Position numbers and translations under genes: made by a program. DNA of 37,597 nt from a virus (Duplodnaviria; Caudoviricetes), in IMG/VR virus record IMGVR_UViG_3300044297_000134, positions 1-37,597 of that record. One strand, written 5' to 3'. Each line of letters opens with the position of its first letter. The first letter of the stretch is position 1. The notes under the pieces were generated by a model. It was not told the origin of the DNA. It made no database searches and saw only the letters and a list, made by a program, of their open reading frames with translations. Shown here one piece after another: positions 3,712-34,345 of the stretch.

Positions 3712-3924
3712 CGGTCCGCCACTGCCGCGCGCGCGACGCTGGCGCCGCTTCTTGGCGGTCTCCTCTTCCTCGCCTTCGTCATCCTCGACGTCGTGCACTG
3801 TCACGGGTGATGCGCTGTTGAGCAGGCGAACGGAGACGACCTTGGCGACGACGGCGCCCACTTCCATGCCAAAGCCTACGGCAATGCACTCAAGGATCGT
3901 AACGACGATGTCGATCAGGTCCAT
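3679..3924 (-). CDS. Small predicted membrane protein
   Basis: ATG 3924 overlaps the upstream stop (TGATG). Hydrophobic N-terminus MDLIDIVVTILECIAVGFG and a charged tail. Confidence 0.55.
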   Translation of the reverse strand: MDLIDIVVTILECIAVGFGMEVGAVVAKVVSVRLLNSASPVTVHDVEDDEGEEEETAKKRRQRRARGSGGPSTSAGVRAIM

Positions 3925-4697
3925 CACGCCCTCCCATCGTAGCACTTGCCATCGCGCCAGAAACGCTGCGCGGTGTAGATGACGACGTCGGCGGTAAAAC
4001 GCCCACTTTCGCGCTCGATGTAGAATTCTCCATGCCCCTGCGTCCATCCAGTCGGGCCTTTCAGGTAACTTGCCTCGTCGACAGGGCAGAGACACGGGAT
4101 CCCGAAACCGCCGCGCACGTGCTGCGACCCTTCGGGGCCGGCGACCGGGATCGTGTAAATCTGCGCGCGGTGACAGTGGCCAATGACGAGCGAGGTTCCA
4201 TAGCGCAGCAGATGTTGCTTCGCATAGGCGTCGCCCGCGTAGACGCCGTGGGTGAAGCCCAGGTGTCCGAGCTTGAACACATCACCGTACTTCGTCGACG
4301 TGATACCAAAATCGATCAGCCCTAGCGCCGACTGCCACGTTTCGCGCCCGCGCAGCGTCGGTGCCTTCTTCGCCACGTAACGCACGTAGCGATGTTCGTG
4401 ATTGCCCTCGACGTAGTGGATCGGGCGTTTGCCCATGATCTTGCGCAGGCGGGCGAGCTCGGCGCGGACTGCTTCAACCTCGACGGCGAAGTCAGGTGCG
4501 GGCGTTCCGTCCTCGTGCAGCGAGACAGACAGGAAATCGGCGAAATCGCCGTTAATGATCAGCCGGTCGGGCTTGATGTCTTGCAGGCGCGCGAGAAACG
4601 CACGCCAGGCAAAGACGTCGTGATAGGGGACGTGCACGTCAGAGCACACGACCACCAATTCGGCGTCCTTGCGCGCCCATTTCTTTCGCGCTGCCAT
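3924..4697 (-). CDS. Calcineurin-like metallophosphoesterase
   Basis: Motifs SDVH, GDFAD, GNHE, THG and GHCH in canonical order. Start placed at MAARKK. Confidence 0.9.
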   Translation of the reverse strand: MAARKKWARKDAELVVVCSDVHVPYHDVFAWRAFLARLQDIKPDRLIINGDFADFLSVSLHEDGTPAPDFAVEVEAVRAELARLRKIMGKRPIHYVEGNHEHRYVRYVAKKAPTLRGRETWQSALGLIDFGITSTKYGDVFKLGHLGFTHGVYAGDAYAKQHLLRYGTSLVIGHCHRAQIYTIPVAGPEGSQHVRGGFGIPCLCPVDEASYLKGPTGWTQGHGEFYIERESGRFTADVVIYTAQRFWRDGKCYDGRA

Positions 4698-4705
4698 GAT
4701 GCCCC

Positions 4706-5245
4706 CTAGGCTTTGTGAACCGCTCGCACCCCGCGCACGCGGTAGGTCTTGACGCGCGTCCCCCACGTCGTCGAGCCTTCAAGCCTCACAGCGTCAAGTT
4801 GTGCCTCACGCCCCGTCGCTGGATCGGCGTAGATGATGCGCTTGTTCCCGCTGGCGTCGTATTCCTCACGCAGCGCAAGGACGAAATGGTCGCCGAATGC
4901 GTCGCCGCTATGGTCGACATGCAGGATGGCGAGTCCGCCAGTGCGGAAGGCCTCGCCAATCGAACCGCGCAAAAGCGACGGCTCGGCCGCGTTGATCTTG
5001 TAGTCGGTCTTCAGGCCTGCCAACGCAGCGAGTTTGCCAGTCAATGCCGACGAATGCAGGAACGCGGATTCAGCGATGCCGCGTCGATTCAACATCGGCG
5101 GCAACATTTCTACGCCGGTCAGTTCGCGCGCGGCCTCGCAAAGGCAAACGAGCATGCAGCCAGACCCGCCGATCGTGCTCGGGCCATAGCCGAGCACATC
5201 CGCAGACCAGCGCGGATCAGCCTGCCTGTATCGGGCCGGCATCAC
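4706..5245 (-). CDS. C39-like cysteine peptidase, candidate endolysin
   Basis: YRQADPRW...IGGSGCML (catalytic Cys), DHFVL (His), YADPA (Asp). Adjacent to small membrane-protein genes. Confidence 0.75.
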   Translation of the reverse strand: MMPARYRQADPRWSADVLGYGPSTIGGSGCMLVCLCEAARELTGVEMLPPMLNRRGIAESAFLHSSALTGKLAALAGLKTDYKINAAEPSLLRGSIGEAFRTGGLAILHVDHSGDAFGDHFVLALREEYDASGNKRIIYADPATGREAQLDAVRLEGSTTWGTRVKTYRVRGVRAVHKA

Positions 5246-5463
5246 TTGCCGCCCGGCAGCTTCAGCTTCGTGATCGAATCGGCGATCACGTCGGCGGCGT
5301 CGGCGGCAGCGTCGTTGCTCGGGTCTTTGTCTGCGTGCGCGCGCTTGGCGTACGACCGAAGCATCCCGACGACGACGTCACGCGCGAAGAGTGCCAGCAA
5401 CATCGCGGCAATGCTGGCGGCACCGTGAGGCGAAATCAGATCCTTAGTGAACATTTCAAGCAT
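5242..5463 (-). CDS. Putative holin-like membrane protein
   Basis: 73 aa with a hydrophobic segment AASIAAMLLALFA, directly upstream of the peptidase. Confidence 0.5.
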   Translation of the reverse strand: MLEMFTKDLISPHGAASIAAMLLALFARDVVVGMLRSYAKRAHADKDPSNDAAADAADVIADSITKLKLPGGK

Positions 5464-5704
5464 GGGAACGACCCTCCGAAATCTTGTTCAATGCCGCATC
5501 GATGCGGTCGAAGCGACGATCGAGGTCGTCACGCAGGCGATCGACGGCGCCACGTACGGCGTCAAGCGATTCCTTGCTCGCCTTGTCGCTGCGCACCTCG
5601 GCGACGAGTTCCTCGAGGCGACGGACGCGCGCCTGCAAGGCTGCCCACGACGCAGCACCGCCGGTAGCGGCAGACAGAATCCCGATCACGATCTGTTCGG
5701 TCAC
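5456..5704 (-). CDS. Small TM + coiled-coil protein (lysis-associated?)
   Basis: GTG 5704 overlaps the upstream stop. TEQIVIGILSAATGGAASW is followed by a heptad-like segment. Confidence 0.55.
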   Translation of the reverse strand: MTEQIVIGILSAATGGAASWAALQARVRRLEELVAEVRSDKASKESLDAVRGAVDRLRDDLDRRFDRIDAALNKISEGRSHA

Positions 5705-6234
5705 GGCACGCCCCCATCGACAGCAGAGAGGTCGAAAGCCTCGGTGCGCTCCTCTGGCGAAGGTCCGCCACCCCACTGCACCGGGGCAAAGACCGGCGCG
5801 CTAGGCGTCAGAATAGCCGCCGCTGCGTCGAGCGCGCCTTCGACCGCCGCGTCTCCCGTGCCGGTCAGCGCCTCGCGCCACGAACGAGCCTGCGCGCGCG
5901 TCATGGCCATAGCGACCATGCAGCCCGCGTCCTTCGGCATCGTGCGAAAGCCGCTGATCGCGTTGGCTTCCATCATGGCGAACAGCGCGCGCGCGGCTGC
6001 GGCCTCTGGCACGTCGAGCCCCGACACTTCGCCAGGACGATCGCCGCCCCCCTCAAGCAAAACGGCGCATTGATCGGCGCGCGGTTCAGCGATCAAGACG
6101 CAGTCGCCATCGGGCGGTGCACACTCGATCGTGAACGAACCAGACGGCGCGAGCAGCGATGACAGCGCGGCGAACCCACCGGCTACGCTGCCGCCGACCA
6201 GAACGAGCAATCCGGCGATTTGGTTTCGATTCAT
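5701..6234 (-). CDS. Exported or membrane-anchored hypothetical protein
   Basis: Start MNRNQIAGLLVLVGGSVAGGFAALSSLL (signal/anchor-like), 4 Cys, ATGA overlap with the upstream gene. Confidence 0.7.
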   Translation of the reverse strand: MNRNQIAGLLVLVGGSVAGGFAALSSLLAPSGSFTIECAPPDGDCVLIAEPRADQCAVLLEGGGDRPGEVSGLDVPEAAAARALFAMMEANAISGFRTMPKDAGCMVAMAMTRAQARSWREALTGTGDAAVEGALDAAAAILTPSAPVFAPVQWGGGPSPEERTEAFDLSAVDGGVP

Positions 6235-8423
6235 GGAGCCACCGCGGGCGTCACGACGGACGACCAGAGACGCACGCGCGAAATCAGACACATCGGCGCC
6301 GCCGCCGTTGAGCCTGTCGTGCCGAGGTAGAGAAACGACGACGCCACGGTCGGCAGCGTGGCAAGCGTATCGGTGCCCGTCGAAGTGCCGTCGTAGAACG
6401 CTTCGATGCTGTTGGTCGCCATCGTCTGCCGCAACTTGTGCAACACACCGTCGGAGACGTCGCCGCTACCTGCAATGATCGACCACTGCGCCGTCGTTAC
6501 CGTGCCTTCGCCGACAGCACGGTCAGCCGTCGCGTCGATACCGAGTCGTGCATAGTTCGCCGTTCCTGTTCCAACGCTCGCGAACGTCGACGAGGTGGCC
6601 ACATCCCACGACGGGCAGAGCACCTGCACGTCCATCGTCGATGGGTCGCCCGTGTAATGCGACGCGCCGTCAAATCGCACGTCGTCGGCGTTGCGCGCGA
6701 CACTTGCCGTCGTCGTCGCCAAATACGACGTCATCGTCGGGTACGCTTCGACGCGCACGCCCCAGAAGCCGCAATCGGCGGTCGCATCGGCGTCGGTGTA
6801 CGTCGTCACGCCGTCGGACGGAGCGCAGAGTAGGTCGTGGTCGTGCAACGCAGCGGTGCCCGCGTAGGCGATGCTCATGCGGCACAGATTGACGTCGGCG
6901 ACGCCGTCGCCCGTGGTGTCGATGGGCCACCGTTGTGCGCGAGCATGGATGACGCCAGCCTGCACGGTCTTGACGGCGGCGGCGCAGTCCTCGCCGACGG
7001 TACACGAACCCGACGTGCAGGTCGCCACATCGAACCACGCGGCGCCGCTGACGATGGTGTTGTCGCGCAACACAGCGAACGTCTGCGCGCCGGCCTTCGC
7101 CCACGCCGAAAACGTGTGCGTTGCTGCCGTCAGCGTGATCGACTGTCGCAACCCGTGCTCGGCGAGGCTGTTGTTTCCGTCGACGTCATCGCCCGTGACG
7201 GTCAGGTCTGCGCCAGCCCACGCATCGGCGAGCACATTGTCGCCAACGGTGATGGGCGTCCACGTCGTGCCGAGCGTCTGCGATTGAAGCGCGATGTTCG
7301 ACGCGGCCGGCTCGCTCATGTAGCCGGCGACGGCGGTGCCGCCTGAATAGGTGCGACGGGCGATGCGTGGGAGGGTGCTGCCGTAGCTGTATAGGTGGCG
7401 CACGTTTCCGTCGACGACGTCGACGTTTGCGCTCGTCGCGCGCGTAAGGGTTGTGGGTGCAGCGGTGCCAGCGGCAATGCTAGGCGTCACGCCGAATGCA
7501 GTCGCAACACGAGCGCGCGCAATCGCCGCCCATTGTGTCGGGTTCGTCGCGCCGCCGGCCATGCATTGCGGCGTCCCCGACGGACACTTCCAAATGCGCA
7601 TTGATTCAATCGGGCCGACCGCCATTGAAGACGACGCAGCACCGCCGATGTTGAACGCCGTTGCGTTCGACAGCGTCGTCGACCGTGCGCTGACGTTGAC
7701 GCCAGTTCCTGCGCCGGCATTCAGATAGAAGATCGCGCCGTTGGTCGTCGCCTCGTCTCGGTCAACGAAGACCATCGCATGGGCGAATTGTCCTGCGACC
7801 GTTCCGGCCGATGATACCGACGTCGTCGTCGACGCGGTGCGCATCTCGAATGCATAGCTGTTTGCGCCGCTGCTTTGTCGCAGAGCATAGCCGTCGGTCC
7901 CGGCAAGGCCCTTGTCGAAGACCTTACCATTGGCCGTCGACGTCGACTTGAGCACGAATTCAACGACGAAGTCTTCCGTCGTGATGTCGCCGACTGACGA
8001 CGACGCGGCCGCATGGGTCTTTGCCGTCGCCGAATAGGACACGCCGCGCTCGGTCGAGTCGATCGCGTGAAATGGCGTGTTGATGGTCGTCGTCGGCGAC
8101 GAGCCCGTCCCGGCTTCAGCGAGTGTGACAGCACCGCTGCCGTCGCGGCATGACCAGTTGGTGCCCGAGATGCCCTGCGCATCGCACGCCAGTACCAGCG
8201 TCATCGACACGCTGTTGACCGTGAGGCTATCGCTCAGGTCGTTTGGCGTGGTGTAGCCGGCGACCAAGTCGAAGCTCGGCGATGGGACGACGACGCCGAC
8301 GGGCGGGCGAGAAAATCCGCTGTCACTACCGACGACGAACGACTCCTCGCCGAGGACGAATTGTGCGCGCGCGCCGCCGGAGAGCAGCGCGAGCGCGGCG
8401 ATGAAGCGCCAATGGCGGCTCAC
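6231..8423 (-). CDS. LamG/ConA-like lectin and head-spike-fibre-like protein with Sec signal peptide (730 aa)
   Basis: GTG 8423 overlaps the upstream stop. N-terminus MSRHWRFIAALALLSGGARA/QF. LamG-like motifs (DFVVEFVLK, FAHAMVFVD, IESMRIW) and spike-fibre-like motifs (TLTRATSA...PR...GYMSEPAASNI; GVRVEA..TSYLATTTASVARNAD). Confidence 0.75.
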   Translation of the reverse strand: MSRHWRFIAALALLSGGARAQFVLGEESFVVGSDSGFSRPPVGVVVPSPSFDLVAGYTTPNDLSDSLTVNSVSMTLVLACDAQGISGTNWSCRDGSGAVTLAEAGTGSSPTTTINTPFHAIDSTERGVSYSATAKTHAAASSSVGDITTEDFVVEFVLKSTSTANGKVFDKGLAGTDGYALRQSSGANSYAFEMRTASTTTSVSSAGTVAGQFAHAMVFVDRDEATTNGAIFYLNAGAGTGVNVSARSTTLSNATAFNIGGAASSSMAVGPIESMRIWKCPSGTPQCMAGGATNPTQWAAIARARVATAFGVTPSIAAGTAAPTTLTRATSANVDVVDGNVRHLYSYGSTLPRIARRTYSGGTAVAGYMSEPAASNIALQSQTLGTTWTPITVGDNVLADAWAGADLTVTGDDVDGNNSLAEHGLRQSITLTAATHTFSAWAKAGAQTFAVLRDNTIVSGAAWFDVATCTSGSCTVGEDCAAAVKTVQAGVIHARAQRWPIDTTGDGVADVNLCRMSIAYAGTAALHDHDLLCAPSDGVTTYTDADATADCGFWGVRVEAYPTMTSYLATTTASVARNADDVRFDGASHYTGDPSTMDVQVLCPSWDVATSSTFASVGTGTANYARLGIDATADRAVGEGTVTTAQWSIIAGSGDVSDGVLHKLRQTMATNSIEAFYDGTSTGTDTLATLPTVASSFLYLGTTGSTAAAPMCLISRVRLWSSVVTPAVAP

Positions 8424-8818
8424 TGCGCCGTCACCAGGAAGCGGCATTGCAGCACCGTGGTGCCGGCCGTCGTGATGCAGCGTTCGGGCGTCTGCACGTT
8501 GGCCCCGAAACGGTCGCCGCTCGCATAGTCGACGCCGTTCGACGTCGTCAACGCGGAGCCGCCGCCGGTCTTGCTGCCGACGGTCACGGCGCCCTTGGCC
8601 GTGCATTCGTACGAGATGAGGTTGAATCCGCCGGTCGGTTGGATGGCGATGCCGCCCGCCGTCGTGTCGCACGTGATGCGCTCACTGCGCGGGAAGGCGG
8701 GGCCAACCTTGACCGCAGCGTCGCGCACGGCCTCGATGACCGTGGCTGGCATACTGAAGGCGTAGACTGCGCCAGCGAACAAGAGCACGCCAGCAGCGAG
8801 GATAAGACGGTTTCGCAT
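8420..8818 (-). CDS. Small beta-sandwich protein (spike-base-like) with Sec signal peptide
   Basis: MRNRLILAAGVLLFAGAVYA/F signal peptide, motif GAVTVG...ALTTSNGVDYASGD, 4 Cys. Confidence 0.7.
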   Translation of the reverse strand: MRNRLILAAGVLLFAGAVYAFSMPATVIEAVRDAAVKVGPAFPRSERITCDTTAGGIAIQPTGGFNLISYECTAKGAVTVGSKTGGGSALTTSNGVDYASGDRFGANVQTPERCITTAGTTVLQCRFLVTAQ

Positions 8819-8853
8819 GGGCTGAATTTACCCCACAAAAGGGAACGCGTCAA
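8819..8853 (-). promoter_or_regulatory. sigma70-like promoter, leaderless, for the signal-peptide operon
   Basis: TTGACG (8853-8848), 17 nt, TAAATT (8830-8825), 6 nt, ATG 8818. Confidence 0.7.
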
Positions 8854-8856
8854 AGC

Positions 8857-8890
8857 GCGACGCTCGCCATCTTTCGACAGCGGGCGTCGT
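8857..8890 (-). terminator. Stem-loop with GAAA tetraloop ending the capsid block
   Basis: Minus strand CGACGCCCGCTGTC-GAAA-GATGGCGAGCGTCG followed by CGCTTT. The U-tail is weak. Confidence 0.5.
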
Positions 8891-8908
8891 GTCAATTCTC
8901 GACGAGGA

Positions 8909-9415
8909 TCAGACTTCGCCGATCTTGACCATCGCGAACGACGCGCTGCGGATCGTGACGGCGTTGCCGTTCGTCTGCACCGCAAGGCGGATTTCACACG
9001 TATCGCCAACCGCCGACAGGTCGACGATCGCATACGCGCAACCAACCGCACCGCGCGCGGCAGTGGCCGGCTCGGTCTTCAACGCCTTGGCGCCCTTGGC
9101 GGCGGCGGCAACGCCCGCTTCTTTGGCGTACACCTGCACCGAATGAAACGACGAGTTCACGCCGATCGAATCGCCGATGTTCGCAAGCACCAGGTACTTG
9201 CCGCAGCCGGCGGGCGTGGCAACGGTGGCGACGCCGGTTCCGACGGCAAACGTCAGACCGCCGCCCGTGGTGTTCTTCTTTTCGGTGAAGAGAGCATTCA
9301 CGATGGCTTGCGGCGTTGCAGCCGCAGCGACCGTGATCGCAAAGCCGGTTGCATCGTCGACGTCGACGAGCAGGGCGTTGTGAGTGCCGCCGGTGTTCAG
9401 TGCTGCGAGAGACAT
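8909..9415 (-). CDS. Putative capsid decoration protein, C1q/TNF(BclA)-like fold
   Basis: SD AGGAGG. Motifs GKYLVLANIG, IVDLSAVGDTCEIRL, SASFAMVKIG. Lies downstream of the capsid gene. Confidence 0.55.
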   Translation of the reverse strand: MSLAALNTGGTHNALLVDVDDATGFAITVAAAATPQAIVNALFTEKKNTTGGGLTFAVGTGVATVATPAGCGKYLVLANIGDSIGVNSSFHSVQVYAKEAGVAAAAKGAKALKTEPATAARGAVGCAYAIVDLSAVGDTCEIRLAVQTNGNAVTIRSASFAMVKIGEV

Positions 9416-9429
9416 TCTGACCTCCTAGT

Positions 9430-9579
9430 TCAGTTCCCGCCTTGGCGGCGTTCACGGTTGACACGCTCGGCGGATTCGCGCGCGATCTTGCGCGCCTGCT
9501 CCGACGAGAGATTGGTTGATTTCTTGATTTGCTCGGTCATCTTTTCGACGACGCGTTGCGGGACATCCTTGTCGCTCAT
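9430..9579 (-). CDS. Small hypothetical protein (49 aa)
   Basis: MSDKDVPQRVVEKMTEQIKKSTNLSSEQARKIARESAERVNRERRQGGN. ATGA overlap with the upstream gene and it fills the gap. Below the ORF-track cut-off. Confidence 0.7.
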   Translation of the reverse strand: MSDKDVPQRVVEKMTEQIKKSTNLSSEQARKIARESAERVNRERRQGGN

Positions 9580-10049
9580 GCGCTGGCCTTTCGCGGTGCA
9601 GTCGTCGACGCGACGTTGCGCACGAGACCTTGAATCGAACGCGCGATGTCGCTCGACTGGAGCTGCTCAAGCTGCTGATCGGCAAGGCGCTTGGCCTCGA
9701 CAGACTCAGCAATGAATTTGGCCTGCGCCTTCTTCCACCGCGCCAGCATTTCTTCGCTGTGCTCGCGGTTGATCACGTCGTCTTCGAACGCTCGCCACTC
9801 ATCGCCGTCGGGAATGCTCGACGGCGGAACGGGCTTGTTGAAAACGTCAAACCACGGGCCCACGCCATCGACAAGGAAGATCGGCAAGACGTGCTCTTTT
9901 CCGTCGACGTCGACGGTGACGCGCTTTTGCAGCGCACGCATAAGCGCCTGACGATTGCTCGTCGGGTTGCCTTCCTTGTCGATCCCGTAGTCGTTGAATT
10001 CGACGACGTGGGGGTCTTTCACGCACTTCAACTTGATCGTTCGTCTCAC
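9576..10049 (-). CDS. Hypothetical protein
   Basis: 157 aa with natural composition, co-oriented in the head module. Confidence 0.75.
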   Translation of the reverse strand: MRRTIKLKCVKDPHVVEFNDYGIDKEGNPTSNRQALMRALQKRVTVDVDGKEHVLPIFLVDGVGPWFDVFNKPVPPSSIPDGDEWRAFEDDVINREHSEEMLARWKKAQAKFIAESVEAKRLADQQLEQLQSSDIARSIQGLVRNVASTTAPRKASA

Positions 10050-10070
10050 TGTCGCGCCTCATTCGAGGGA

Positions 10071-10106
10071 GAGAAAGAGAGGGGCAGCGGGATTGCTGCC
10101 CCTCTC
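10071..10106 (-). terminator. Intrinsic terminator after the major capsid gene
   Basis: Perfect 12-bp stem GAGAGGGGCAGC/GCTGCCCCTCTC with a 6-nt loop, followed by TTTCTC. Confidence 0.75.
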
Positions 10107-10113
10107 ACGGCGA

Positions 10114-11106
10114 TCACGCCGCCTTGTAAATGATTTTGATCCCGTGCTCGTCGGTGTGCTCGCCGACGGCCCAGCACCAACGACCGACCGCGAGCAGCGT
10201 GTCGTCGGCAAGGTCGTACTGGAAGCCCAGCGACGGCGAGTAACGCTCGACGAGTTCGCCGAAGCCGCGCACCGAGCCCGGCGCGCCGGTTTCGCCACGA
10301 CCAGCGACGATCAGCGCCGAGACGCGATCGACACCGGCGTTGGCCGTCGACATAACCGCCTTGTTCGCGGCGTAGATCGGAATCCCGGCGAACGAACCAC
10401 GGAAGCCGTTGCGCGACGCATCGGGGCGGTGATTGAAGAACGCCACGTCAGCGGCCGACGACGCGAAGATCGTCGACAGCGGGGCTCCCGTGCCGGCGAC
10501 GGCGAGAGCGCGCAGATCGCCCACGCCCTTCTCCTCGAGGATGAAGACGGCGTCTTCACTTTCGACGTTGTTGCTCAACAGCTTCGTCAGCGCATCCAAC
10601 ATCGTCGCAAACGACAGCGCCGTGTTGGTCGTGCCCGACGAGCCCGACAAGCCGGGGAAGAGCTGGAGCGCGTCGGTCTCGGCGCGCAGGTAGTGGGCCT
10701 GCATGACCTCGGCCATCGCGTCGCGAACGAGCGGGAGCGCGGCCGGATTGCCCGACTGAATCGCCGACAGGACGGCAGCGCGGTCGTAGCCCGTGGGCAG
10801 CGCGAGTTCGATCGAATCGCTCGAAAGCTGCACACCCTGCACCTTCGTGGTGGGCGTGATGCTGATGTTCGACTGAACGCTGAACGTCGCCGGGTTCGAG
10901 AACGCCAGCGCCTCGGTGTCGTCGACGGCGGCGGCGAGCGCGTTCTTCTTGCGGATCTTGCGGACCTTCGTCGAGGCGCCAGCGATCGACGCCTGATTCA
11001 TGAAGGGAAGCACGACGTACTTGCCGCGAAGCGGGTCGAGAGCCAGCTGGCTCATGACCTCAGACAGGATCCAATTAGCGACGGTGACGGACGAGGTAAC
11101 GGCCAC
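10114..11106 (-). CDS. Major capsid protein (HK97-like, inferred)
   Basis: 330 aa with SD AGGAGG. Follows the scaffold gene and precedes a strong terminator. Ends in capsid-like GEHTDEHGIKII. Confidence 0.8.
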   Translation of the reverse strand: MAVTSSVTVANWILSEVMSQLALDPLRGKYVVLPFMNQASIAGASTKVRKIRKKNALAAAVDDTEALAFSNPATFSVQSNISITPTTKVQGVQLSSDSIELALPTGYDRAAVLSAIQSGNPAALPLVRDAMAEVMQAHYLRAETDALQLFPGLSGSSGTTNTALSFATMLDALTKLLSNNVESEDAVFILEEKGVGDLRALAVAGTGAPLSTIFASSAADVAFFNHRPDASRNGFRGSFAGIPIYAANKAVMSTANAGVDRVSALIVAGRGETGAPGSVRGFGELVERYSPSLGFQYDLADDTLLAVGRWCWAVGEHTDEHGIKIIYKAA

Positions 11107-11135
11107 GAGAGCCTCCTAGCGCCTTTCGTGGCGCG

Positions 11136-11813
11136 TTATGCGTTAGGCGCCTTGCCAGCGCCCGGTGCGAACCGAGCGATGCCAAGGGAATTGGGTTGCG
11201 CGCGCCCACCGAGGACGCCCGCAAAGAATTTGGCGACGGCGGACGGGTCGCGCGCCTTGATGTCGGCGAATTTCTTGCCCGACGGGTCGGCGAGTGCCGC
11301 TTCGATGTCCGGTGCAGTCACGCCAGGCGGAGCACCCATCGCGGGAGCGTTGCCGACGGCTTTCGCAGCAGGCGCAGCAGGAGCCGCGCGGAACGCGGCA
11401 AGCACCTTGGCCTTGCTTTCGACGGTCGCGGCGTCGGCGTAGAGAGCGCGCGCGGCCTCGGGCAAACTGGCGGCCTCGGCGTCGAGACGCTTGGTCTCAG
11501 CTTCCTCATGGGCACGCCAGCGCTGGGCGAGGGGCTCGATGCCCTCGAGCTCGGCGAGTCGGCTCTTTGCCGTCTCAAGCGCCTTCGCCAACTCGCCCGC
11601 GCGCTCGGCTTCTTCTTGCGCCTTCTTGCGCGCATCGCGGTCGGCCTTGCGACCGGCGGCAGCTTCGGCTTTCAGTTCGGCGAGTTCGCGCGCAGCCGCG
11701 CGCAGCGCGTCGAGGTCTTCGGCGACGGGAGCAGCGGCAGACGTCGACGTGGTCGCGGCATCTGCCACGGGCGAGGGGTTAGGCGCGCCTTCGGGGGCGG
11801 ATTGGGTGGTCAT
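11136..11813 (-). CDS. Capsid scaffolding protein
   Basis: 225 aa Ala/Glu/Lys-rich coiled coil with Pro-rich linkers, immediately upstream of the capsid gene. Confidence 0.75.
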   Translation of the reverse strand: MTTQSAPEGAPNPSPVADAATTSTSAAAPVAEDLDALRAAARELAELKAEAAAGRKADRDARKKAQEEAERAGELAKALETAKSRLAELEGIEPLAQRWRAHEEAETKRLDAEAASLPEAARALYADAATVESKAKVLAAFRAAPAAPAAKAVGNAPAMGAPPGVTAPDIEAALADPSGKKFADIKARDPSAVAKFFAGVLGGRAQPNSLGIARFAPGAGKAPNA

Positions 11814-11849
11814 GGCACAATCCTACAGCATCGCTTACATAACGCGCAA
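11814..11849 (-). promoter_or_regulatory. sigma70-like promoter, leaderless, for scaffold/capsid
   Basis: TTGCGC, 18 nt, TAGGAT, 6 nt, ATG 11813. The spacer contains GTTATGTAAGC. Confidence 0.55.
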
Positions 11850-11850
11850 G

Positions 11851-12405
11851 TCACGACGACAGCTTGAAGGCGACCTTCTGAATCTCGCGAAAAAGCATCT
11901 CGGTTTGCTCCTTCGTCAAAGCCAGAAACCGACGGGCTGGCGTGTGCGCCGTCCCGTAGTGCAGCCAGTGGGCGACGACGTTATGCGGCGGCGACTGTTT
12001 GCCGGTGCGCTGCATCGTGAACGACCCAGCCGTCTGCTTTCCCTTCGCCAACCGCTTTTCAAATCGCGCAAGACCGCCCGCCTTCGGCTTCCACACTGGC
12101 GACGTGCCAGCGTCAGGCGCGACAATGATCACAACGCGGTTGTCGTTGACGTCGGCACCGCGTGCCTTGACGCTGTTCAGCAGGCCACCCGACAGACGCA
12201 GATCGACCTTCGGCGATTCGCCACCGCGCAAGAGAAAATCGATGTAGCGATTCGAGTACGGCGCGAATTGGTTTCCGTTGGCGTCGACGCCGCGTTTGGT
12301 GCGCTCAATGATCGCACCTGGCACAAGCGCCTTGATCACGGCAGCGACGGCGCGGCCGTTGAATTTCGGCATACGTGGACGACGGATAGGAACGATGCCA
12401 CCCAT
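11851..12405 (-). CDS. Phage virion morphogenesis / tail completion protein (Mu gpG / P2 gpS-like)
   Basis: IIERTKRGVDANGNQFAPYS, VDLRLSGGLLNSV, HYGTAHTPARRFLALT. TAATG overlap with the upstream gene. Confidence 0.75.
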   Translation of the reverse strand: MGGIVPIRRPRMPKFNGRAVAAVIKALVPGAIIERTKRGVDANGNQFAPYSNRYIDFLLRGGESPKVDLRLSGGLLNSVKARGADVNDNRVVIIVAPDAGTSPVWKPKAGGLARFEKRLAKGKQTAGSFTMQRTGKQSPPHNVVAHWLHYGTAHTPARRFLALTKEQTEMLFREIQKVAFKLSS

Positions 12406-13232
12406 TAGGCCACCTGTAGCTGCTGGCGCAGTCGATCGGTGATGTCCTCGCCTTGGCCGTTGGCGCTCGTGTCGAAGACGCGATACCCCAGCCGCAGCGC
12501 CTCGTCCGTCGGTGTCGGCGCCCACGAATGGCGGCAATTGTAGCCGCCGCAGTAGTCGGGCACGTCGAGGCCCTGGCCGTTGTTCATGCCCGACGGCTGC
12601 GTTACTGCCTTGCCGACCCACGTCTTGCAAAATGGGCGGTTCTTTTGGTCGCGTGGCCCGACGTAGACGTAGACCAGGTCGATGCCTTCGTCGGCGGCGA
12701 TTTGCGCTTCGGCCATGACAGCACGTCGACCGACGGCCATGATCGCGGCATCCACCGCCGCTTGCGCTTGGCGGTAGGTGGTATCCATCTTCGTCGACAC
12801 ATCGGCGACGATGTCGCCAAGGCTGCCGCCGGACAGCACACCGCGCGCGACGGCTTCGCGCATCTCGCGTTCGGCGCCCTTGAAGACGCGCACGACGTCG
12901 GCGGCTTGGCGCTCGACGATTTGGTCTAGTTCGGCGCGGACGTCGAGCGAGAGCGTAGCAGGCGCAGCACCGACGACGGCCTCAACCGCCGCAAGAGCAC
13001 GGATGCCCGCCACGCTGATCGCATTCTCGCCAGCCTGTGCCAGCCGATCCGAGATCTGCCGGTAGACCGCTGCGGCAGTCTGTCCTTGACGTCTGACAAG
13101 GCTGTCTTCCCCAGGATTCGTGTCGAGCTGTAGCAGGATGCGAAACAGATCGCGCTCTAGCGCATCCTGCGCGGCGCGCAAGTCGAGGATCGCTTCGTCG
13201 GCGACCGGGCCGGCGAGGTCGGCGCCGCTCAC
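12405..13232 (-). CDS. Minor head morphogenesis protein (Mu gpF / SPP1 gp7-like)
   Basis: YVYVGPRDQKNRPFC...GGYNCRHSW. Directly downstream of the portal. Confidence 0.8.
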   Translation of the reverse strand: MSGADLAGPVADEAILDLRAAQDALERDLFRILLQLDTNPGEDSLVRRQGQTAAAVYRQISDRLAQAGENAISVAGIRALAAVEAVVGAAPATLSLDVRAELDQIVERQAADVVRVFKGAEREMREAVARGVLSGGSLGDIVADVSTKMDTTYRQAQAAVDAAIMAVGRRAVMAEAQIAADEGIDLVYVYVGPRDQKNRPFCKTWVGKAVTQPSGMNNGQGLDVPDYCGGYNCRHSWAPTPTDEALRLGYRVFDTSANGQGEDITDRLRQQLQVA

Positions 13233-14767
13233 TGCTTAGTCTGCCCCGCAGACGTCTCACGCAGCGACGTGAACGGCGACCCAGAGACCGACACATTGGC
13301 GAGTCGCGCCGCAGGGGCCATCGCGCCGCGCGATTGTTCGAGGTGCGCGAGCGCAGCGTTGCGATCGGCAGACAGCCCGAGCATGACGCGCGCGTCGGCC
13401 TCGTCGATGATCTTGGCGGTCAGGAGCTCAAGCACGCGCTGCGTCTTCGCTGCGTCGTCCTCGTAGCTCTTCGCGACGCCCATCGTGACCTGTGGCGAGC
13501 ACCCATCGAACGACGCGGGCGCCGTCGGGCTGAAACGTGCGAGCAGATCGAGCACGATCGGCAGCACTTCGGATTCCTCGAAGTCGGCAAAAACGGGGCG
13601 CTGCTCGGCGATGCGTTGATCGTGCGGCGCGTTGGCGATGATCTTCGCCACGCCCGACTGTGGCGCACCAGGTGTCACGGCGTAGGCATCGGGGCTGTTG
13701 CCACGGCTAACGCCCAGCTCTTGCAGGTCGCGCGTCGCGCTGGCCTCAATCGCGGCATGGTTCGCCGACGGCGTGAGGTATTGCAGCGTCTCGCCACTTC
13801 CGACGTGGATCACGCTGTCGGGACCGCCGATCAATTCCTTCGTTTCGCGCATCGTCCCGGCGTAAAGCGCCTGTGCGTGCGCTTGCAGGTTGATCACGTG
13901 CTGGCGGTTGCTGCGTGCGACGTTGAGATTGTCGACGTTGACGGCGACGTCACGATCTGGTTCTGGCCACATTCCACCCGACGGTGCTTCGGTGCGCAGG
14001 AACGCGACGGGCAGACGGCCTTCGTAGACCTCCGACGGCGTCGACGTCTTGCCATCCTCACTCAACCGACGCTGCGTCCACGGCGCCCACGTCTGCACCT
14101 GCCCGCGATCGTCCTCGGTCCACTCTCGTGACCACACCCACCAGACGTCACTCGCACCGTCGGCTTGTTCCTTTGCCTGCCGAATGGCGCAAAACCAGAT
14201 CATCTCGTCTTCATCGGGCGCTGATTGGTGCGTGATCGTGACGACGTCGTGGGGCCAGTAGAGATGCGCCACGCATTCGCCGTTATCTGCGGCGTCGATC
14301 TTGCGATAGCCCAGCACGACGACGGCAGCACGGGCACCGGTTGCCGCGCGGCGCTCGACCTCTGGCATAAGCACATCAAGCGCGAGATCGTCGACGGCCT
14401 CGGAGAATGCGACCATACGCGGGTCGTCCTCGGCGAGCGGCTGCCCCGCATCGTCGACCAGCTCGCGCTTTGCGGGCGTCATGTAGACGCCAGAATCCTG
14501 CCGCGCGAAGAAACGCAGCCAGTTCACCGGGTCGATCGGCATCGCCGCACCGGTCTTCGGGTAGGCCTTCGCCAGCGCAGTGCGGATGATCGCCTGTTGG
14601 TCGCCTGCGTACCGTTGCGCAAGTCCCTTGACGACGATGTCGTAGTCTGCGGGGCGCTGCTTTCGGCCAGCGTCGAGCAACGCGCGCAATTGGTCGGGTT
14701 GCCATGCGCCCGCGTCGTTGCGGATCTGCTCGATAACGGCGTCGCTGGCGGCGTTCGCGAAAATCAT
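13229..14767 (-). CDS. Portal protein
   Basis: 512 aa between the terminase and minor head genes. Contains GRLPVAFL and a QSGVA motif. Confidence 0.8.
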   Translation of the reverse strand: MIFANAASDAVIEQIRNDAGAWQPDQLRALLDAGRKQRPADYDIVVKGLAQRYAGDQQAIIRTALAKAYPKTGAAMPIDPVNWLRFFARQDSGVYMTPAKRELVDDAGQPLAEDDPRMVAFSEAVDDLALDVLMPEVERRAATGARAAVVVLGYRKIDAADNGECVAHLYWPHDVVTITHQSAPDEDEMIWFCAIRQAKEQADGASDVWWVWSREWTEDDRGQVQTWAPWTQRRLSEDGKTSTPSEVYEGRLPVAFLRTEAPSGGMWPEPDRDVAVNVDNLNVARSNRQHVINLQAHAQALYAGTMRETKELIGGPDSVIHVGSGETLQYLTPSANHAAIEASATRDLQELGVSRGNSPDAYAVTPGAPQSGVAKIIANAPHDQRIAEQRPVFADFEESEVLPIVLDLLARFSPTAPASFDGCSPQVTMGVAKSYEDDAAKTQRVLELLTAKIIDEADARVMLGLSADRNAALAHLEQSRGAMAPAARLANVSVSGSPFTSLRETSAGQTKQ

Positions 14768-17578: not shown

Positions 17579-19876
17579 TCACTCAACGAGGCGCAAGACG
17601 GTGGCTGCCCTCCCCTTGCTGGCGCGCTTGGCTATTTCAAGTCGCTCCTCTTCAAGTAGCCGCCGACAGGCACGCTCGACGGCATCTGCGGAGAGCTTGC
17701 GGCAAGCCCGCAATACGTCGGTTCTGGTGGCCCATCCGTCCGCGTCCGCGTGGGCCATGATCGCCGCTTCGACGGCCGCAACCTGCCCCGCCTCGTCATC
17801 CCACTTTGGCGCGCTGTGGTCCCGCAGCGACCGCGCCACGATCGCGCTAGATGCCTCTACAAGCGCGATCGCCGTCCAAGCTACATCCTCGGTCACTACG
17901 GGCCACGATCCGGGTTGCTGCCGCAGCACAGCGAGCACGAGCGACAGCCGCGTCGCCTGCTCTGCGCACCGTCCGAGCAACGCGGGCGGCACATCTCCCG
18001 CTAGCGGCGTCCGGCGCCGGTCGTCCAGGTGATCGGCGTAGTTCGCAAGGACCGCCGCCCCACCCGCGTCCTGTACCTCGTCGGGCACATACACCCGGAT
18101 CGCATCGCCCGCTTTTGTGTCTCCGTGTGGGTTGGCGCGCACCCATTCCTCGTGTTCGATGCGCCAGCCGTCGATGGCGCTCGCCACGGCCGCCGGAACA
18201 TCGCGCGCGGTTGGCGCCGGCCGCTGGCGCTGCGGCAATATCGAGAGCGCCTCGACCCAGAAATGGCGCCCCATGAAACCGTCATCGATCGCGAGCTGCC
18301 CGACCGCGTCGTGCAGCGCAGACGGCGTTGACGACCCGAAGATCGATAAGGACGGCGCAACGAGCACCCGATCGGCGCCGCCACGCGCTACCGACGTCGC
18401 GGCGCGGTAGGTTCCGGTTCCCTTCGTCGTCAGGTCGAGCAGCAGCCCGCGCATCTCGCGTTGGTGTCCGCTGCGGCTGTCGAAAAGCGCTTTCAGTCGC
18501 GGGCCATATTCGTCGAGCACGAGCAGCAGGCCGTGACCCTCTAGCGTCGCCTGCTCGATGCGCGCCAGCGTCGACACCGTCGACGAAAGATCGTTCGCAC
18601 CGACGAGCGCCGCCCATGATCGTTCAAGCGCCTGCGTCAGCGCACCTTGCGGTCGCCCCTTGCCGTGCGCCGTGTCCGCCACCGCGCACACGATCTGCGC
18701 CGACGTCGATCGCTCGTAGACCCATCGCCGCCCGCACATCGCGGACCCGAGTGCGATCAGCGCCCCGATCGCAAGCCCCGGTTGCGGGTACTCGGCGCCG
18801 GCCATGACCCACGCCGGAAACGAGTCACACAACCCGCCCAGCGCGCGCACCTCGTCGTAGACCCGCCACGTATCCGCGTCGTCGCGTTGCGGCAGCCGCC
18901 GGAACGAACGCGGCGCCCGTTTTGTCGGTTTTGTCGTCGTTTCCTGCACTTCCCCATCGTCGACGTCGTCGGGTACGAGCGCCAGTGAGGCGTCGCCGTG
19001 GATCTCGGCGCCGTGGAATGGGTCGTCGAGCGACGACGAGGCGAGCAAGTGCCCTGGCGCATGGCCCTTCGGATCCGGCTTTGTCGATGCCTCGCGCGCC
19101 TTGTGTTCGAGTTCGCGATCCGACCACGGTGGAGTGCAGCGCAAATTAAATTCACGCAGCACCTCGAGGACGTCGCCCTCGTCCAACCCGAAACCGGTAG
19201 CACACGCGCGCGCAACTGCCATCGTCGAGCTATGCCCACCCGCGCCAGAGATAGCGCCAGGCATACGCGCTACGTAGGCCCGCGCGCGACGCATCGCCGT
19301 GTCCCGGTCGCCTATCCGTGCCGACGGCAGGACGAGCGCCCGTTGTGCCTGTACGCTGGCGCGTTTGTAGGAGCGCATCGCATCGAGCACCCACGTTGGG
19401 ATCGGTGCAGGTTCGACGTCGACGAGAATTTCGTACTGCCGCCCATCACCAACGACCGAACCAGGTGCGAGCACGTATCCACCATTGCCCCGCGTGTCGA
19501 CGTCACCATAACCTAGGCATTTATCGGCCTTCTGCGTGTTCCGCAGCACGTCGTCGTCGTCGAGCCCGTCAGGCATTCGGTAGTAGTAGTGCGCGCCCCC
19601 CCGTGGCGTTCCGACAAGCATCGTCGGGTCCAGACGATCGTGGATCGGGTGGCCTCCCTCGCTGTCGACGTCGACAACGAAGAGACCGCTTCGCCGCCCC
19701 GTCACGATCGCCACCGGCGCCTGCGGATACTGCGCCCACATCACCCGGATCGTCGCCTCGTCGGTGCTTGCCCGGTTCGGCCAGTCTTTGATGATCGGCC
19801 GTTTGTTCGCGCCCGTCGGAAAGACGGGCCAGCCACGCGCCGCAAGGGCCAGCGCAACGTCTACGTGGTTCTTCAT
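17579..19876 (-). CDS. Bifunctional DNA primase/polymerase with PriCT and C-terminal DUF3987-like helicase region
   Basis: GWPVFP, AIVTG..SGLFVVDVD, TPRGGAHYYY, DTRGNGGYVLAPGS (Prim-Pol); FNLRCTPPWSDREL (PriCT); LLVLDEYG, GFMGRH. Confidence 0.9.
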   Translation of the reverse strand: MKNHVDVALALAARGWPVFPTGANKRPIIKDWPNRASTDEATIRVMWAQYPQAPVAIVTGRRSGLFVVDVDSEGGHPIHDRLDPTMLVGTPRGGAHYYYRMPDGLDDDDVLRNTQKADKCLGYGDVDTRGNGGYVLAPGSVVGDGRQYEILVDVEPAPIPTWVLDAMRSYKRASVQAQRALVLPSARIGDRDTAMRRARAYVARMPGAISGAGGHSSTMAVARACATGFGLDEGDVLEVLREFNLRCTPPWSDRELEHKAREASTKPDPKGHAPGHLLASSSLDDPFHGAEIHGDASLALVPDDVDDGEVQETTTKPTKRAPRSFRRLPQRDDADTWRVYDEVRALGGLCDSFPAWVMAGAEYPQPGLAIGALIALGSAMCGRRWVYERSTSAQIVCAVADTAHGKGRPQGALTQALERSWAALVGANDLSSTVSTLARIEQATLEGHGLLLVLDEYGPRLKALFDSRSGHQREMRGLLLDLTTKGTGTYRAATSVARGGADRVLVAPSLSIFGSSTPSALHDAVGQLAIDDGFMGRHFWVEALSILPQRQRPAPTARDVPAAVASAIDGWRIEHEEWVRANPHGDTKAGDAIRVYVPDEVQDAGGAAVLANYADHLDDRRRTPLAGDVPPALLGRCAEQATRLSLVLAVLRQQPGSWPVVTEDVAWTAIALVEASSAIVARSLRDHSAPKWDDEAGQVAAVEAAIMAHADADGWATRTDVLRACRKLSADAVERACRRLLEEERLEIAKRASKGRAATVLRLVE

Positions 19877-19965
19877 TTCGTGATCTCCCTTGTCATCCCT
19901 TGCACGCCAGCGAGCGAGCCGCTAGCCTCTCCCCTGTCGGTCACGTCGTGGTCTCCGACACTCCC

Positions 19966-20408
19966 TCAGCACCCACCGTTCGCGCGGTGGGTGTTGTCTT
20001 TTGCGTAAATCATCCGGCGCACCTGCTGCGCGTGGAACACCTTGGACGTGCGCGCGACGAACCCGCGAGCGGCGAGCTCCGCGGCGACGGCACGAAGCGA
20101 AAGCCCTGTTTCGTAAAGTGTGCGGGCCTGACGGATGGTTGCTTGTTCGCCCTCGTGAGGGAGCAGGGTCACGCCGTCGTCTGCGATGGCGTAACCATAG
20201 GGGCGTGCCCGCCAGTTTTCTGTCCGAGTTGCGCTTTCCTCTTCATCCCTGCTTTTGTCAGTGTCGCGTGATGCGTCATGTCGCGTGAGTGAACGAGGCC
20301 ATGACATCGACCGCAAAGCGAAATCGTCTTTGTTCCACCAAGTGACCGCGGGACCACATGGTGATTGTGTAGGTTGCTTATGCTTTCACACTCAAAACAC
20401 TTGTTCAC
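19966..20408 (-). pseudogene. HNH endonuclease fused to a serine-recombinase-type DNA-binding region, split by a 1-nt frameshift
   Basis: CFEC..HHVVPRSLGG..LCGRCHGLVH then TKAGMKRKAQLGQKTGGHAP. Continues in the -1 frame as YGY...GEQATIRQ...GLSLRAVAAELAARG. The break is at the C4 run 20200-20203. Confidence 0.75.
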
Positions 20409-20417
20409 TTCGTCACC

Positions 20418-22148
20418 TCAAAAAGGAAGATCGTCGCCATCCCACGGATCCACACTAGGTAGGATCGGATCCACACTAGGTAGGATCGGCTCGTCGTCCT
20501 CGCCCGGCTGGCGACCTTCCGCGAGCAGCAGTCCGATCACGCGCGTGTAGTCTCCGTCGGGCTTCGTGCGAATCTTGAGCACGCGGCGCATTTCACCAGC
20601 GCGTAGACGCTCGACGGCTTCGGCTACGGTATCGGGCGCTCGCGTTCCCACGTTCGTCGCCCACCACTTGATCGCCTTCTCGCGCGCGAATCCCGCGTGC
20701 TCAAGGCAGATCCATTCGCTCGCGATTTTCTTCGGCACGCTCGTCGCCTTGCCGTCGTCGGCGGCAAAGTAGTCGATCCGCAGCGTCGGCGGCGCGTCCG
20801 GTGCGCCCTTCTTCGTGTGGCGCACGAACGCCACCTCGCCCACGTCGTGCTCCGTCGACGTTTCGCGCTTGCCGCCGATGCTGCCCGTCGATAGCACTGG
20901 CAGCGACGACGCGCGCTCGTTCGCTTTCTTCTCCGGCGGCGGGAATTCGTGGTCGCACTCCTTGCAGATGCGCGCGCTCGCCGGCTGTTCGGCGCAGCAC
21001 TGCGGGCACGTCTTGATCGGTGCATCGCCGCCGCCTTCGCTTTTGCGCTCTTTGATTCGCACGTCGTCGACGGGGCCGTGGCGCGCAATGTTGCCCCCGT
21101 AATCGAGCACCAGGCAATCGCTCTTCCCATCGGCGACGCGCATCCCGCGCCCGACCATCTGCACCCACAGCGACGCCGAGCACGTTGGGCGAACGACCGC
21201 GAGCACGTCGACGACCGGGGCATCAAATCCGGTTGTGAGCACGTCGCACGACGCGATGGCGGTCAGTTCACGCCGGCGGAATTTCGCGATCACCGCCTGC
21301 CGAACGATCTGTTCTGTCTCACCGACGATCAGTTCGCAGGAAATCCCGCGCTCGATCATCGCGTCGCGAAGGTGCGCCGCGTGCCCGACGCCAACGCCAA
21401 AGAGCAACGCCGACGTGCGCCCGCCTTCGCGTATTGCCGCCGCCACGTCATCGGCTACACGTTCTGTCACGCTGGCCACGTCAGCGGCCAGTTCAAGGTC
21501 GCGCAAGACGAATTCGCCAGCGTTGCGCCCGACGGCGGAGATATCCACCGTCGCCGACGCGTCGCCCGTCACGAGCGGCGATAGGTAGCCTTGCGCGATC
21601 AGGTCAGGGATCGCGCAACGGTACACGATCGAGGCGAACAGCGCGTCACTGCCCTGCGTCAAATAGCCCTGTCCTAGCCTGTACGGCGTGGCGGTCAGAC
21701 CAACGACGCGCAACGCGGGGTTGTCTTTGCGCAACGCATCGACCAGCCGCCGGTACTGCGTCCCCCCGTCGGGCGAGATCAGATGCGCTTCGTCGACGAT
21801 CAGCACGTCCACACGGCCCAGAATGGCCGCGCGCTTCGCGATCGATTGCACCCCGCAGACCGTGATCGCTTTGATCGATCGCTGCCCTAGACTGGCGCTG
21901 TAGACGCCGATAGGTGCCTCGGGCCATACGCGCCGACAAGCCGCCGCGTCTTGCTCAATCAGTTCGGCGCGGTGTGTGGCGATCACGACGCGACCGCCGC
22001 ACTCCTGCACGATCACGCGGGCAAGTTCGCCGATAATGGCGCTCTTGCCACCGCCCGTTGGCACCTCGACGAGTGGGTTGGTTCCTCCGCGCTCCCAGTA
22101 GGTGATCACCGCGTCGATCGCTGCGGATTGGTAGTCGCGCAGCTTCAT
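20418..22148 (-). CDS. SF2 DEAH helicase with Zn finger (RadD/YejH-like)
   Basis: LRDYQ, PTGGGKS, DEAH, GLTATPYR, LTTGFDAP, QMVGRGMR, CPQC/CKEC. Acidic tail DDLPF. Confidence 0.92.
   Translation of the reverse strand: MKLRDYQSAAIDAVITYWERGGTNPLVEVPTGGGKSAIIGELARVIVQECGGRVVIATHRAELIEQDAAACRRVWPEAPIGVYSASLGQRSIKAITVCGVQSIAKRAAILGRVDVLIVDEAHLISPDGGTQYRRLVDALRKDNPALRVVGLTATPYRLGQGYLTQGSDALFASIVYRCAIPDLIAQGYLSPLVTGDASATVDISAVGRNAGEFVLRDLELAADVASVTERVADDVAAAIREGGRTSALLFGVGVGHAAHLRDAMIERGISCELIVGETEQIVRQAVIAKFRRRELTAIASCDVLTTGFDAPVVDVLAVVRPTCSASLWVQMVGRGMRVADGKSDCLVLDYGGNIARHGPVDDVRIKERKSEGGGDAPIKTCPQCCAEQPASARICKECDHEFPPPEKKANERASSLPVLSTGSIGGKRETSTEHDVGEVAFVRHTKKGAPDAPPTLRIDYFAADDGKATSVPKKIASEWICLEHAGFAREKAIKWWATNVGTRAPDTVAEAVERLRAGEMRRVLKIRTKPDGDYTRVIGLLLAEGRQPGEDDEPILPSVDPILPSVDPWDGDDLPF
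20445..20489. repeat. 21-bp tandem duplication in the helicase tail
   Basis: CGGATCCACACTAGGTAGGAT x2 (plus CGG), encoding PILPSVD twice. Confidence 0.95.
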
Positions 22149-22998: not shown

Positions 22999-23027
22999 TT
23001 GACACGACACCGGATCGCGGCTAGAGT
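22999..23027 (+). promoter_or_regulatory. Rightward sigma70 promoter
   Basis: TTGACA, 17 nt, TAGAGT, at the point where the coding strand switches. Confidence 0.85.
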
Positions 23028-33541: not shown

Positions 33542-34345
33542 TCACACCTTCGCATGTAGGCGCAGATCGGTGGAGTACAGCGGCACGCCCGGCCCAAGGC
33601 GCTGCGGCTCAAAGCGCGACAGCGCATCCTCGGAGAAGTTGCACATGCTCGTCAGCGTCGATGACGACAGCGCTGAAAGCGTCGTGCCCGTCACCGTCGG
33701 CTGCTCGTGGAGTTCGAGCGCGGCGCCTGCGCCGAAGCGCTCAAGGAATCCCTCAAGCGTATCCTGCGTACCAGCGAGCGCGCGCCTGACCAGCATGCGG
33801 CGCTCGTCGACGAAGGCCAGCCCGAGACGATAGGATTGCATGCGCGCCGAGCGCGTCACGCCTTGCACGCGGCCAGATACCGCGCGCGGTACGGCAACGA
33901 TCCGCTCGCTGTATGGTTCGATCTCGCGCGCGATGTCGTTGGATACCCATCCCGCCGCGCACGCCTTCGTCGATGTCTTCGCGGTCGCGCTGACCGTGTC
34001 GTTGGCGCTGAATCCAAGCAGGGCCTCGTCAAACGTCGTCGCGGCGTCGGCCCAAAGCACGCCGAAGTTGTCGGCGCCGGTCGCGCGTGTGATCGTGATC
34101 GTAGTGTGCGCTGTCGCCGGGTCGATGCTGCGCGAAACAGTGATCGTGTAGGTGTTCGCCGATATGTTGGCGTTCTCAAGCGCGGTTTTCAGCGCGGGCA
34201 ACAAGTCGCCTGCCGCACCGTCGCCGCGGAGGTAGTAGGTGCCCGCCAGGATCGTGGCGTTGCCGGTGTTGGCGCCTTCGGTGAAGCGCAACACGTTGTT
34301 TGCGTTCGTCAGAACGATCGCGCCGAGCATGACGGGATAGCTCAC
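33542..34345 (-). CDS. Distal tail (Dit-like) protein
   Basis: 267 aa immediately after the tape measure. Assignment is positional. Confidence 0.55.
   Translation of the reverse strand: MSYPVMLGAIVLTNANNVLRFTEGANTGNATILAGTYYLRGDGAAGDLLPALKTALENANISANTYTITVSRSIDPATAHTTITITRATGADNFGVLWADAATTFDEALLGFSANDTVSATAKTSTKACAAGWVSNDIAREIEPYSERIVAVPRAVSGRVQGVTRSARMQSYRLGLAFVDERRMLVRRALAGTQDTLEGFLERFGAGAALELHEQPTVTGTTLSALSSSTLTSMCNFSEDALSRFEPQRLGPGVPLYSTDLRLHAKV

Follow-up and report, generated by a model that had tools for sequence, protein, structure and literature searches.

A candidate exported and disulfide-folded head spike encoded by a three-gene cassette in a freshwater tailed phage

Here we report the analysis of a three-gene cassette in the virus record IMGVR_UViG_3300044297_000134 (Duplodnaviria; Caudoviricetes), the whole of which, 37,597 bases and estimated complete, we refer to as the window. 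On balance we favour the interpretation that the products of these genes, A, B and C, make up an accessory head spike, exchangeable between phages, of the type carried by the gene transfer agent of Rhodobacter capsulatus (RcGTA), likely exported through Sec, folded with disulfide bonds and docked on the capsid at lysis. B belongs to a family of head-spike fibres, A is modelled as a jelly roll, leaders are conserved, cysteines occur in pairs, and an N-terminal tag on B covaries with A. The standard view is that tailed phages finish their particles in the cytoplasm, and their structural proteins normally lack signal peptides.

Results

The three genes lie on the minus strand. Gene A (8420-8818) encodes 132 residues with 4 Cys, predicted to form a leader, a short helical arm and a single jelly roll, and is the candidate spike base. 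Gene B (6231-8423), which starts at GTG, encodes 730 residues with 12 Cys in six pairs, arranged as a leader, a putative docking tag, a LamG-like domain, a head-spike-fibre domain and a second domain resembling LamG or a carbohydrate-binding module (CBM). Gene C (5701-6234) encodes 177 residues with four conserved Cys, belongs to no known family and travels with the body of B. Stop and start codons overlap within the cassette (GTGA and ATGA), and a further GTGA leads from C into an 82-residue gene at 5456-5704. A reading made from the sequence alone had described three coupled genes with these coordinates, starts and N-termini and with 4, 12 and 4 Cys, all of which is accurate; homologues of B and C begin at the starts it gave and not at the longer ones (8672 for B, 6291 for C) chosen by a default open reading frame (ORF) caller. 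None of the three proteins had a Pfam or PHROGs match, and for C there was no atlas or PDB match either.

Profile comparisons show B to be a member of the RcGTA head-spike-fibre family. The domain at residues 370-579 (6687-7316, minus strand) scores 58 bits over a curated cutoff of 36 against NF048003 (E 1.8e-15), and a profile of B matches the RcGTA fibre Rcc01080 (6tb9_F3) with an E of 5.9e-14. The structural model of B has a predicted local distance difference test (pLDDT) score of 91, falling below 50 for residues 1-40, and places a LamG-like domain at about 64-310, followed by the fibre domain and the second LamG/CBM-like domain; the lectin-type folds match laminin G, CBM40 and AbnA domain 4 (Z 17-18). 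These profile and structural matches bear out the sequence-only reading, in which B is a fibre of the RcGTA type that carries LamG-like domains. PF13385 is precomputed on some B homologues, B itself having no Pfam match. Kinship with clostridial binding domains was rejected, the matches sharing only the LamG fold at 6-14% identity. In one structure search the solved structure closest to the fibre domain was the baseplate protein 9b45 (Z 20.9, root mean square deviation (rmsd) 3.6, 196 aligned).

A DTTGDG loop previously described as resembling a calcium-binding loop is present in B as part of a DxxGDGxxD element (residues 502-510; 6894-6920, minus strand) that is an insertion relative to Rcc01080, as is the Cys-rich stretch at 469-480. 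DxxGDG is kept at 502-507 in 86 of 96 rows of the B alignment (95 of 98 matches plus the query; P0114, P0147 and P0161 were left out), and position 3 is mostly T or S; the calcium loop motif we take to be Dx[DN]xDG, with D or N at that position. Calcium binding by the loop is thus far a mere possibility. The fibre domain also occurs in other settings. One locus (L005; L numbers denote loci outside the window) encodes a leaderless tail-region protein (19801-21123) whose start is related to window 33542-34345 and into which a head-spike-fibre domain is inserted. A contig of cellular origin, with the label Bdellovibrionales (L012), encodes at 9038-13438 a leader-bearing protein of more than 1,460 residues with several fibre-domain matches.

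For A, the AlphaFold model (pLDDT 88) shows a helix at residues 25-35 and then a single jelly roll, with the leader modelled as a confident helix. Its best solved match is the vertex spike P1 of PM2 (Z 9.3, rmsd 2.4, 84 aligned). Among predicted viral proteins there were 39 matches at E up to 0.001, all but one uncharacterised or unnamed. An alignment of 65 A sequences (the query and 64 of 88 representatives, with fragments and long extensions dropped) gave single weak matches only in PHROGs, Pfam and NCBIfam. In gene order and in the model, A and B reproduce the layout of a small jelly-roll gene directly before a fibre gene. The suggestion that A resembles a capsid spike base agrees with its fold, and a sequence link to the RcGTA base Rcc01079 was not found. 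A complex prediction with four copies of mature A and the B tag scored 0.02 and weighs neither way.

Signal-peptide-like N-termini had been proposed for all three proteins, and were corroborated both by a leader test and by conservation across homologues. The test was our own heuristic for a basic n-region, a hydrophobic h-region and a small-x-small c-region, rather than SignalP; within the window it flagged A, B and C plus 1 of 24 other genes. It was passed by all 61 A rows (60 homologue matches and the query) and by 86 of the 96 B rows. A profile of mature A recovered the 88 representatives (50% clustering), 69 of which passed, and most of those that missed still have a hydrophobic stretch. 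The predicted cleavable Sec leaders span residues 1-20 in both A (8759-8818, minus strand; ending in AxA) and B (8364-8423, minus strand). Leaders drift more than the bodies that follow them (0.42 vs 0.73 in A; 0.32 vs 0.48-0.68 in B) while keeping their n/h/c character, so that by this heuristic A and B have the features of Sec substrates of signal peptidase I: a basic n-region, a hydrophobic h-region, a small-x-small site and drift. A lipobox reading of leaders with "AASC" was rejected, as sister sequences have V or I there. Neither a lipobox nor a second membrane segment was found in A, B or C, and the whole window yielded no lipoprotein ORF and hence no o-spanin candidate; a route to the cell surface is therefore not evident.

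Cysteine pairs were defined by co-presence across alignment rows. In B they are 80-92, 280-287, 474-480, 533-551 and 603-712 (phi 0.71-1.0), leaving Cys469 and Cys514, both invariant, as the remaining two; an extra pair, 162-188, has been gained in 11 rows. A has the pairs 50-114 (phi 1.0) and 72-125 (phi 0.97). Beyond residue 30 the number of Cys is even in 60/61, 94/96, 64/65 and 67/71 rows of the respective sets. We also surveyed the fibre domain at 59 of 73 loci, duplicates and fragments having been dropped. Among 37 distant fibre-domain proteins 31 are leaderless, and Cys469 occurs in none of the 27 leaderless proteins covered at that position, as against 3 of 5 covered leader-bearing ones, where it is accompanied by Cys514 (some rows are related). 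The co-occurrence of leaders and Cys in homologues, proposed earlier as a check, is therefore observed. A full-length leaderless relative of B (L019, 30% identity), whose phage has baseplate-type genes, retains a single one of the 12 Cys columns and serves as a natural cytoplasmic control. At this locus (9582-11968) a leaderless small gene and the leaderless fibre gene follow lysis-like genes; the small gene has no detectable relationship to A (probability 0.2) and is analogous to it in position alone, and downstream of the fibre we found no third gene.

Since export-type leaders and paired Cys are kept together across relatives, the spike parts likely fold outside the cytoplasm. Export and disulfide folding seem to us very probable, with strong indirect support from the drifting leaders, the paired Cys and their co-occurrence.

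After its leader, B carries a mature N-terminal Gly/hydrophobic tag (about residues 21-40; 8304-8363, minus strand), modelled with low confidence in B alone, which comes in several classes, each paired with one A subtype. At 25 hand-picked, non-redundant loci, tag similarity tracks the body of A (Spearman 0.75) and not that of B (-0.05). A single tag is common to all 14 loci that have window-type A, including 7 where the fibre body is unrelated, and over 14 loci the tag is conserved above the leader that lies between it and A (0.46 vs 0.27, in a comparison with one row misregistered and one Gly fixed by construction). This covariation appears to be a new observation, reminiscent of the fibre-to-base peptide of RcGTA, and the tag may bind A. 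C goes with the body of B, staying when the A subtype changes and being replaced by other anchored, Cys-rich genes when the B body changes. Alternative fibres with the same tag and a different body occur at L002 (10384-12099) and L097 (10393-12111); they end in a C-terminal motif set that we take to be SGNH-esterase-like.

The 330-residue product of the window gene at 10114-11106 is probably the capsid protein, judging from position and size, and has no family match. Window-type A is found solely alongside window-type capsids (50-88% identity in the loci that include a capsid gene). The A protein of L006, whose capsid protein is 90% identical to the window's (that of L009 is 30% identical), is a chimera: its arm is identical to window-type arms at 13 of 18 positions and to that of L009 at 2 of 18, and its body is 53% identical to L009 vs at most 38% otherwise. 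At L101 (9839-10160), in a phage otherwise like the window, the first 66 codons of A are joined to the last part of C and all of B is missing; the junction is either a natural deletion or an assembly error, and the deletion, if real, would make the spike dispensable, as in RcGTA. At L100 a gene for a lipoprotein-like product with 9 Cys (11457-11813) is inserted inside the cassette. In L002, L065, L097 and L098/L099 a gene of 276-347 residues with a GxSxG motif, presumably patatin-like, stands between the cassette and holin-like genes, and possibly encodes a membrane-lysis enzyme.

C had been proposed as an anchor or a chaperone, and its N-terminus fits the first of these roles. Residues 1-28 (6151-6234, minus strand) form a conserved Gly/Ala/Ser-rich segment with a median of 24 uncharged residues, 53% G/A/S and 1 basic residue (71 rows), which shows no drift (0.65 vs 0.63 for the body; 71 matches, all taken). 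C therefore looks anchored rather than cleaved, likely by an uncleaved signal anchor of the signal-anchor-release (SAR) kind. A SAR domain has 1-2 basic residues and then about 20 weakly hydrophobic, Gly/Ala-rich residues, and its defining test is release from the membrane by a pinholin or an uncoupler (PMC9239132). The segment of C agrees with that sequence description. C is thus comparable in the composition of its N-terminus to SAR endolysins such as Mu gp22 (PMC9239132), and differs in that it is not recognisable as an enzyme and that its release on depolarisation is only predicted.

Genomic setting

The window is found in freshwater runs, no RNA run being among those listed, and contigs from three other runs are identical to pieces of it, one covering 7994-9265. 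Terminase, portal, minor head, primase, helicase and tail-type genes are recognised in the window. The cassette is placed between the capsid region and a group of small genes that we take to be holin-like together with a 179-residue gene presumed peptidase-like, none of which had matches in family searches. In phages of unrelated types the cassette sits in the late region, amid virion and lysis genes. A search of GTDB gave a single match, to the fibre domain of L012, which provides no host.

The cassette had also been described as an independently promoted unit following a hairpin. Both elements exist: a GC-rich hairpin with a weak U-tail (8858-8889, minus strand; z = -1.9 for the region) follows the 168-residue gene upstream of A, and a sigma70-like promoter, TTGACG-17-TAAATT (8825-8853, minus strand), has its -10 box ending 6 nt before the ATG of A; a Shine-Dalgarno site is absent, as would be expected if the transcript were leaderless. 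The promoter score is at chance level (1 found vs 0.9 +/- 0.9 expected). Among 20 loci checked, the promoter is present only in the window and in L001, which retains the hairpin with stem changes, the -35, the 17-nt spacing and a TAnnnT pattern; in 17 of the 20, A is preceded by a Shine-Dalgarno-like site placed immediately behind the gene before it. Independent promotion is therefore lineage-specific, a general private promoter was rejected, and the cassette normally belongs to the late operon.

Several neighbouring features are worth recording. The 168-residue, leaderless, beta-rich gene product encoded before A (8909-9415) has no family match; its relatives are 45-96% identical, counterparts were not detected in L009, L096 or L101, and it is possibly a cytoplasmic decoration protein. 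A metallophosphoesterase gene (3924-4766), with about 80% identity in close relatives, lies between the peptidase-like and head-tail genes. The top promoter-like site of the regions scanned (10 of 12; 22999-23027, plus strand) directly follows a hairpin where the plus-strand replication genes begin.

Discussion

In the interpretation that we favour, the cassette would be expressed late, together with the capsid and lysis genes, and its products exported through Sec; removal of the first 20 residues of A and B would expose the arm of the one and the tag of the other. Dsb-type enzymes of the host would then oxidise the proteins, A would oligomerise (as a pentamer, by analogy) and capture one B through its tag, and C, held on the inner membrane by its weak anchor, would hold or cap the body of B until freed by holin action. 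At lysis the arm of A would bind capsid vertices, and the lectin-like domains of B would provide a first, reversible binding to host surface polysaccharide. The likely benefit would be stable disulfide-bonded lectin domains that do not meet the capsid before they are released. That the spike docks on the head as the cell lyses seems to us reasonably probable. SAR-timed release is a more tentative proposal, as is the fuller scheme of a two-compartment build, in which oxidised spikes parked in the periplasm by C are freed by the holin and snapped onto vertices, and in which cleavage unmasks a base-specific tag code that allows phages to exchange fibres of any type; we would regard either as possible and somewhat doubtful.

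Several observations weigh against a head spike of this kind. Neither B nor the capsid protein has a match among 50,697 GenBank phages, leaving no cultured relative. The RcGTA base was not listed for A by Foldseek, by two VIA runs or by two PDB profile searches, so the case for linking A to that base is made by its fold class, the order of the genes and the covarying tag. The fibre domain alone is not proof of a head location, being present also in the cellular protein of L012 and the tail protein of L005. The 25 tag loci are not phylogenetically independent, and the tag adjoins the 3' end of A, so that linkage adds to the covariation. Near-identical B and C occur in phages with unrelated capsids (L007, L008). 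That the arm follows the capsid is the weakest step, since the argument comes from the one chimera, L006, which a crossover inside A explains equally well, and across 16 loci the correlation of the arm with the major capsid protein (0.59) is no better than that of the body (0.63). Finally, L021 has leaders and few Cys, the leader-bearing gene at the A position having none, which means that export does not require Cys.

Other fates of the three proteins have to be weighed against docking on the head. They could be exported and never join a virion, forming instead a lectin complex tethered to the envelope of the infected cell, where C would be the permanent anchor and the function would be to mask receptors or exclude superinfection. 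The conserved membrane segment of C, the leader-bearing fibre-domain protein of L012 and the movement of B and C between phages with unrelated capsids would suit such a complex, and in a monoderm host Sec export by itself reaches the cell surface; however, the cassette is late, between capsid and lysis genes, no integrase was recognised among the window genes scanned, no outer-membrane route is evident, and the arrangement of base and tagged fibre known from a proven capsid spike is retained. We consider this outcome unlikely. Decidedly unlikely, in our view, is that the proteins are exported and released at lysis to remain free, as soluble lectin particles or decoys, or to dock on the tail or neck. 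The cassette does follow tail genes in L007, L017 and L065 and the portal gene in L008 and L014, and in one structure search the fibre domain had the baseplate protein 9b45 as its top solved match, but the closest solved fold to A is a vertex spike, window-type A keeps to window-type capsids, and the window has separate leaderless tail-fibre genes.

It is also conceivable that the N-termini are not export signals and that assembly is cytoplasmic, as for RcGTA spikes, with disulfides forming in air after lysis. Virion disulfides can form spontaneously (PMC13576161), the leader evidence comes from a heuristic only, and AlphaFold models the leader of A as a confident helix. Against this, the basic-hydrophobic-small pattern is kept by very different leader sequences, the heuristic flagged only one of the control genes, and Cys pairs go with leaders, being absent from the leaderless full-length fibre of L019. 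We judge this highly improbable.

An exported, disulfide-folded spike that joins the particle at lysis would, if confirmed, represent an extra assembly step that ties virion finishing to the timing of lysis. It would also explain signal peptides in the structural modules of uncultured phages, which would otherwise be annotated as belonging to secreted, non-virion proteins. The idea can be tested with this cassette, which consists of three small genes for which cleavage sites are predicted and six plus two Cys pairs are named, and nature provides further materials in matched and mismatched tag-base pairs, the leaderless fibre of L019 and the apparent deletion of L101.

We found no description of exported head spikes of tailed phages in the literature searched, most subscription journals and supplements lying outside it. 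In the available part of its text, a study of disulfide-crosslinked virions (a siphovirus tail tube, Milano and Q-beta; PMC13576161) contains neither "signal peptide" nor "periplasm"; the systems are alike in having Cys-stabilised virion parts, whereas here the pairs look intramolecular and are accompanied by leaders. Likewise, in the accessible portion of a preprint (bioRxiv 10.64898/2026.09.13.751334) signal peptides come up solely in connection with host fimbrial proteins, and none is noted for the P22 tailspike. The jelly-roll domain of the PM2 spike P1 (PDB 2vve, 2w0c) is the best structural match of A, but identity is 11%, PM2 is tailless and lipid-containing, and A is a single domain with a leader.

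The closest comparison is with the RcGTA head spike, in which a pentameric base, Rcc01079, carries the fibre Rcc01080 (PDB 6TB9; PMC7296036). There the fibre gene comes after a small jelly-roll gene, the fibre binds the base pentamer through its residues 2-10, and the base binds the capsid through its N-termini (PMC7296036); with its docking peptide at residues 2-10, the RcGTA fibre is leaderless. The RcGTA fibre binds the capsule (PMC10218006), and spike mutants lose about two thirds of activity and keep about a third (PMC5026251). Shared with our cassette are the order of a small jelly-roll gene and then a fibre gene, a homologous fibre domain, a short Gly/hydrophobic peptide at the fibre N-terminus and, to judge from those mutants and from L101, which is without most of the cassette, an accessory role. 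Homology of A to Rcc01079 has no sequence support here, B adds two LamG-like domains, six Cys pairs and the DxxGDG loop, and C is a third, apparently anchored gene. Above all, leaders here precede the arm and the tag, unlike in the leaderless RcGTA proteins, and their presence in every A row and in most B rows suggests that the cassette encodes a variant of the RcGTA-type spike.

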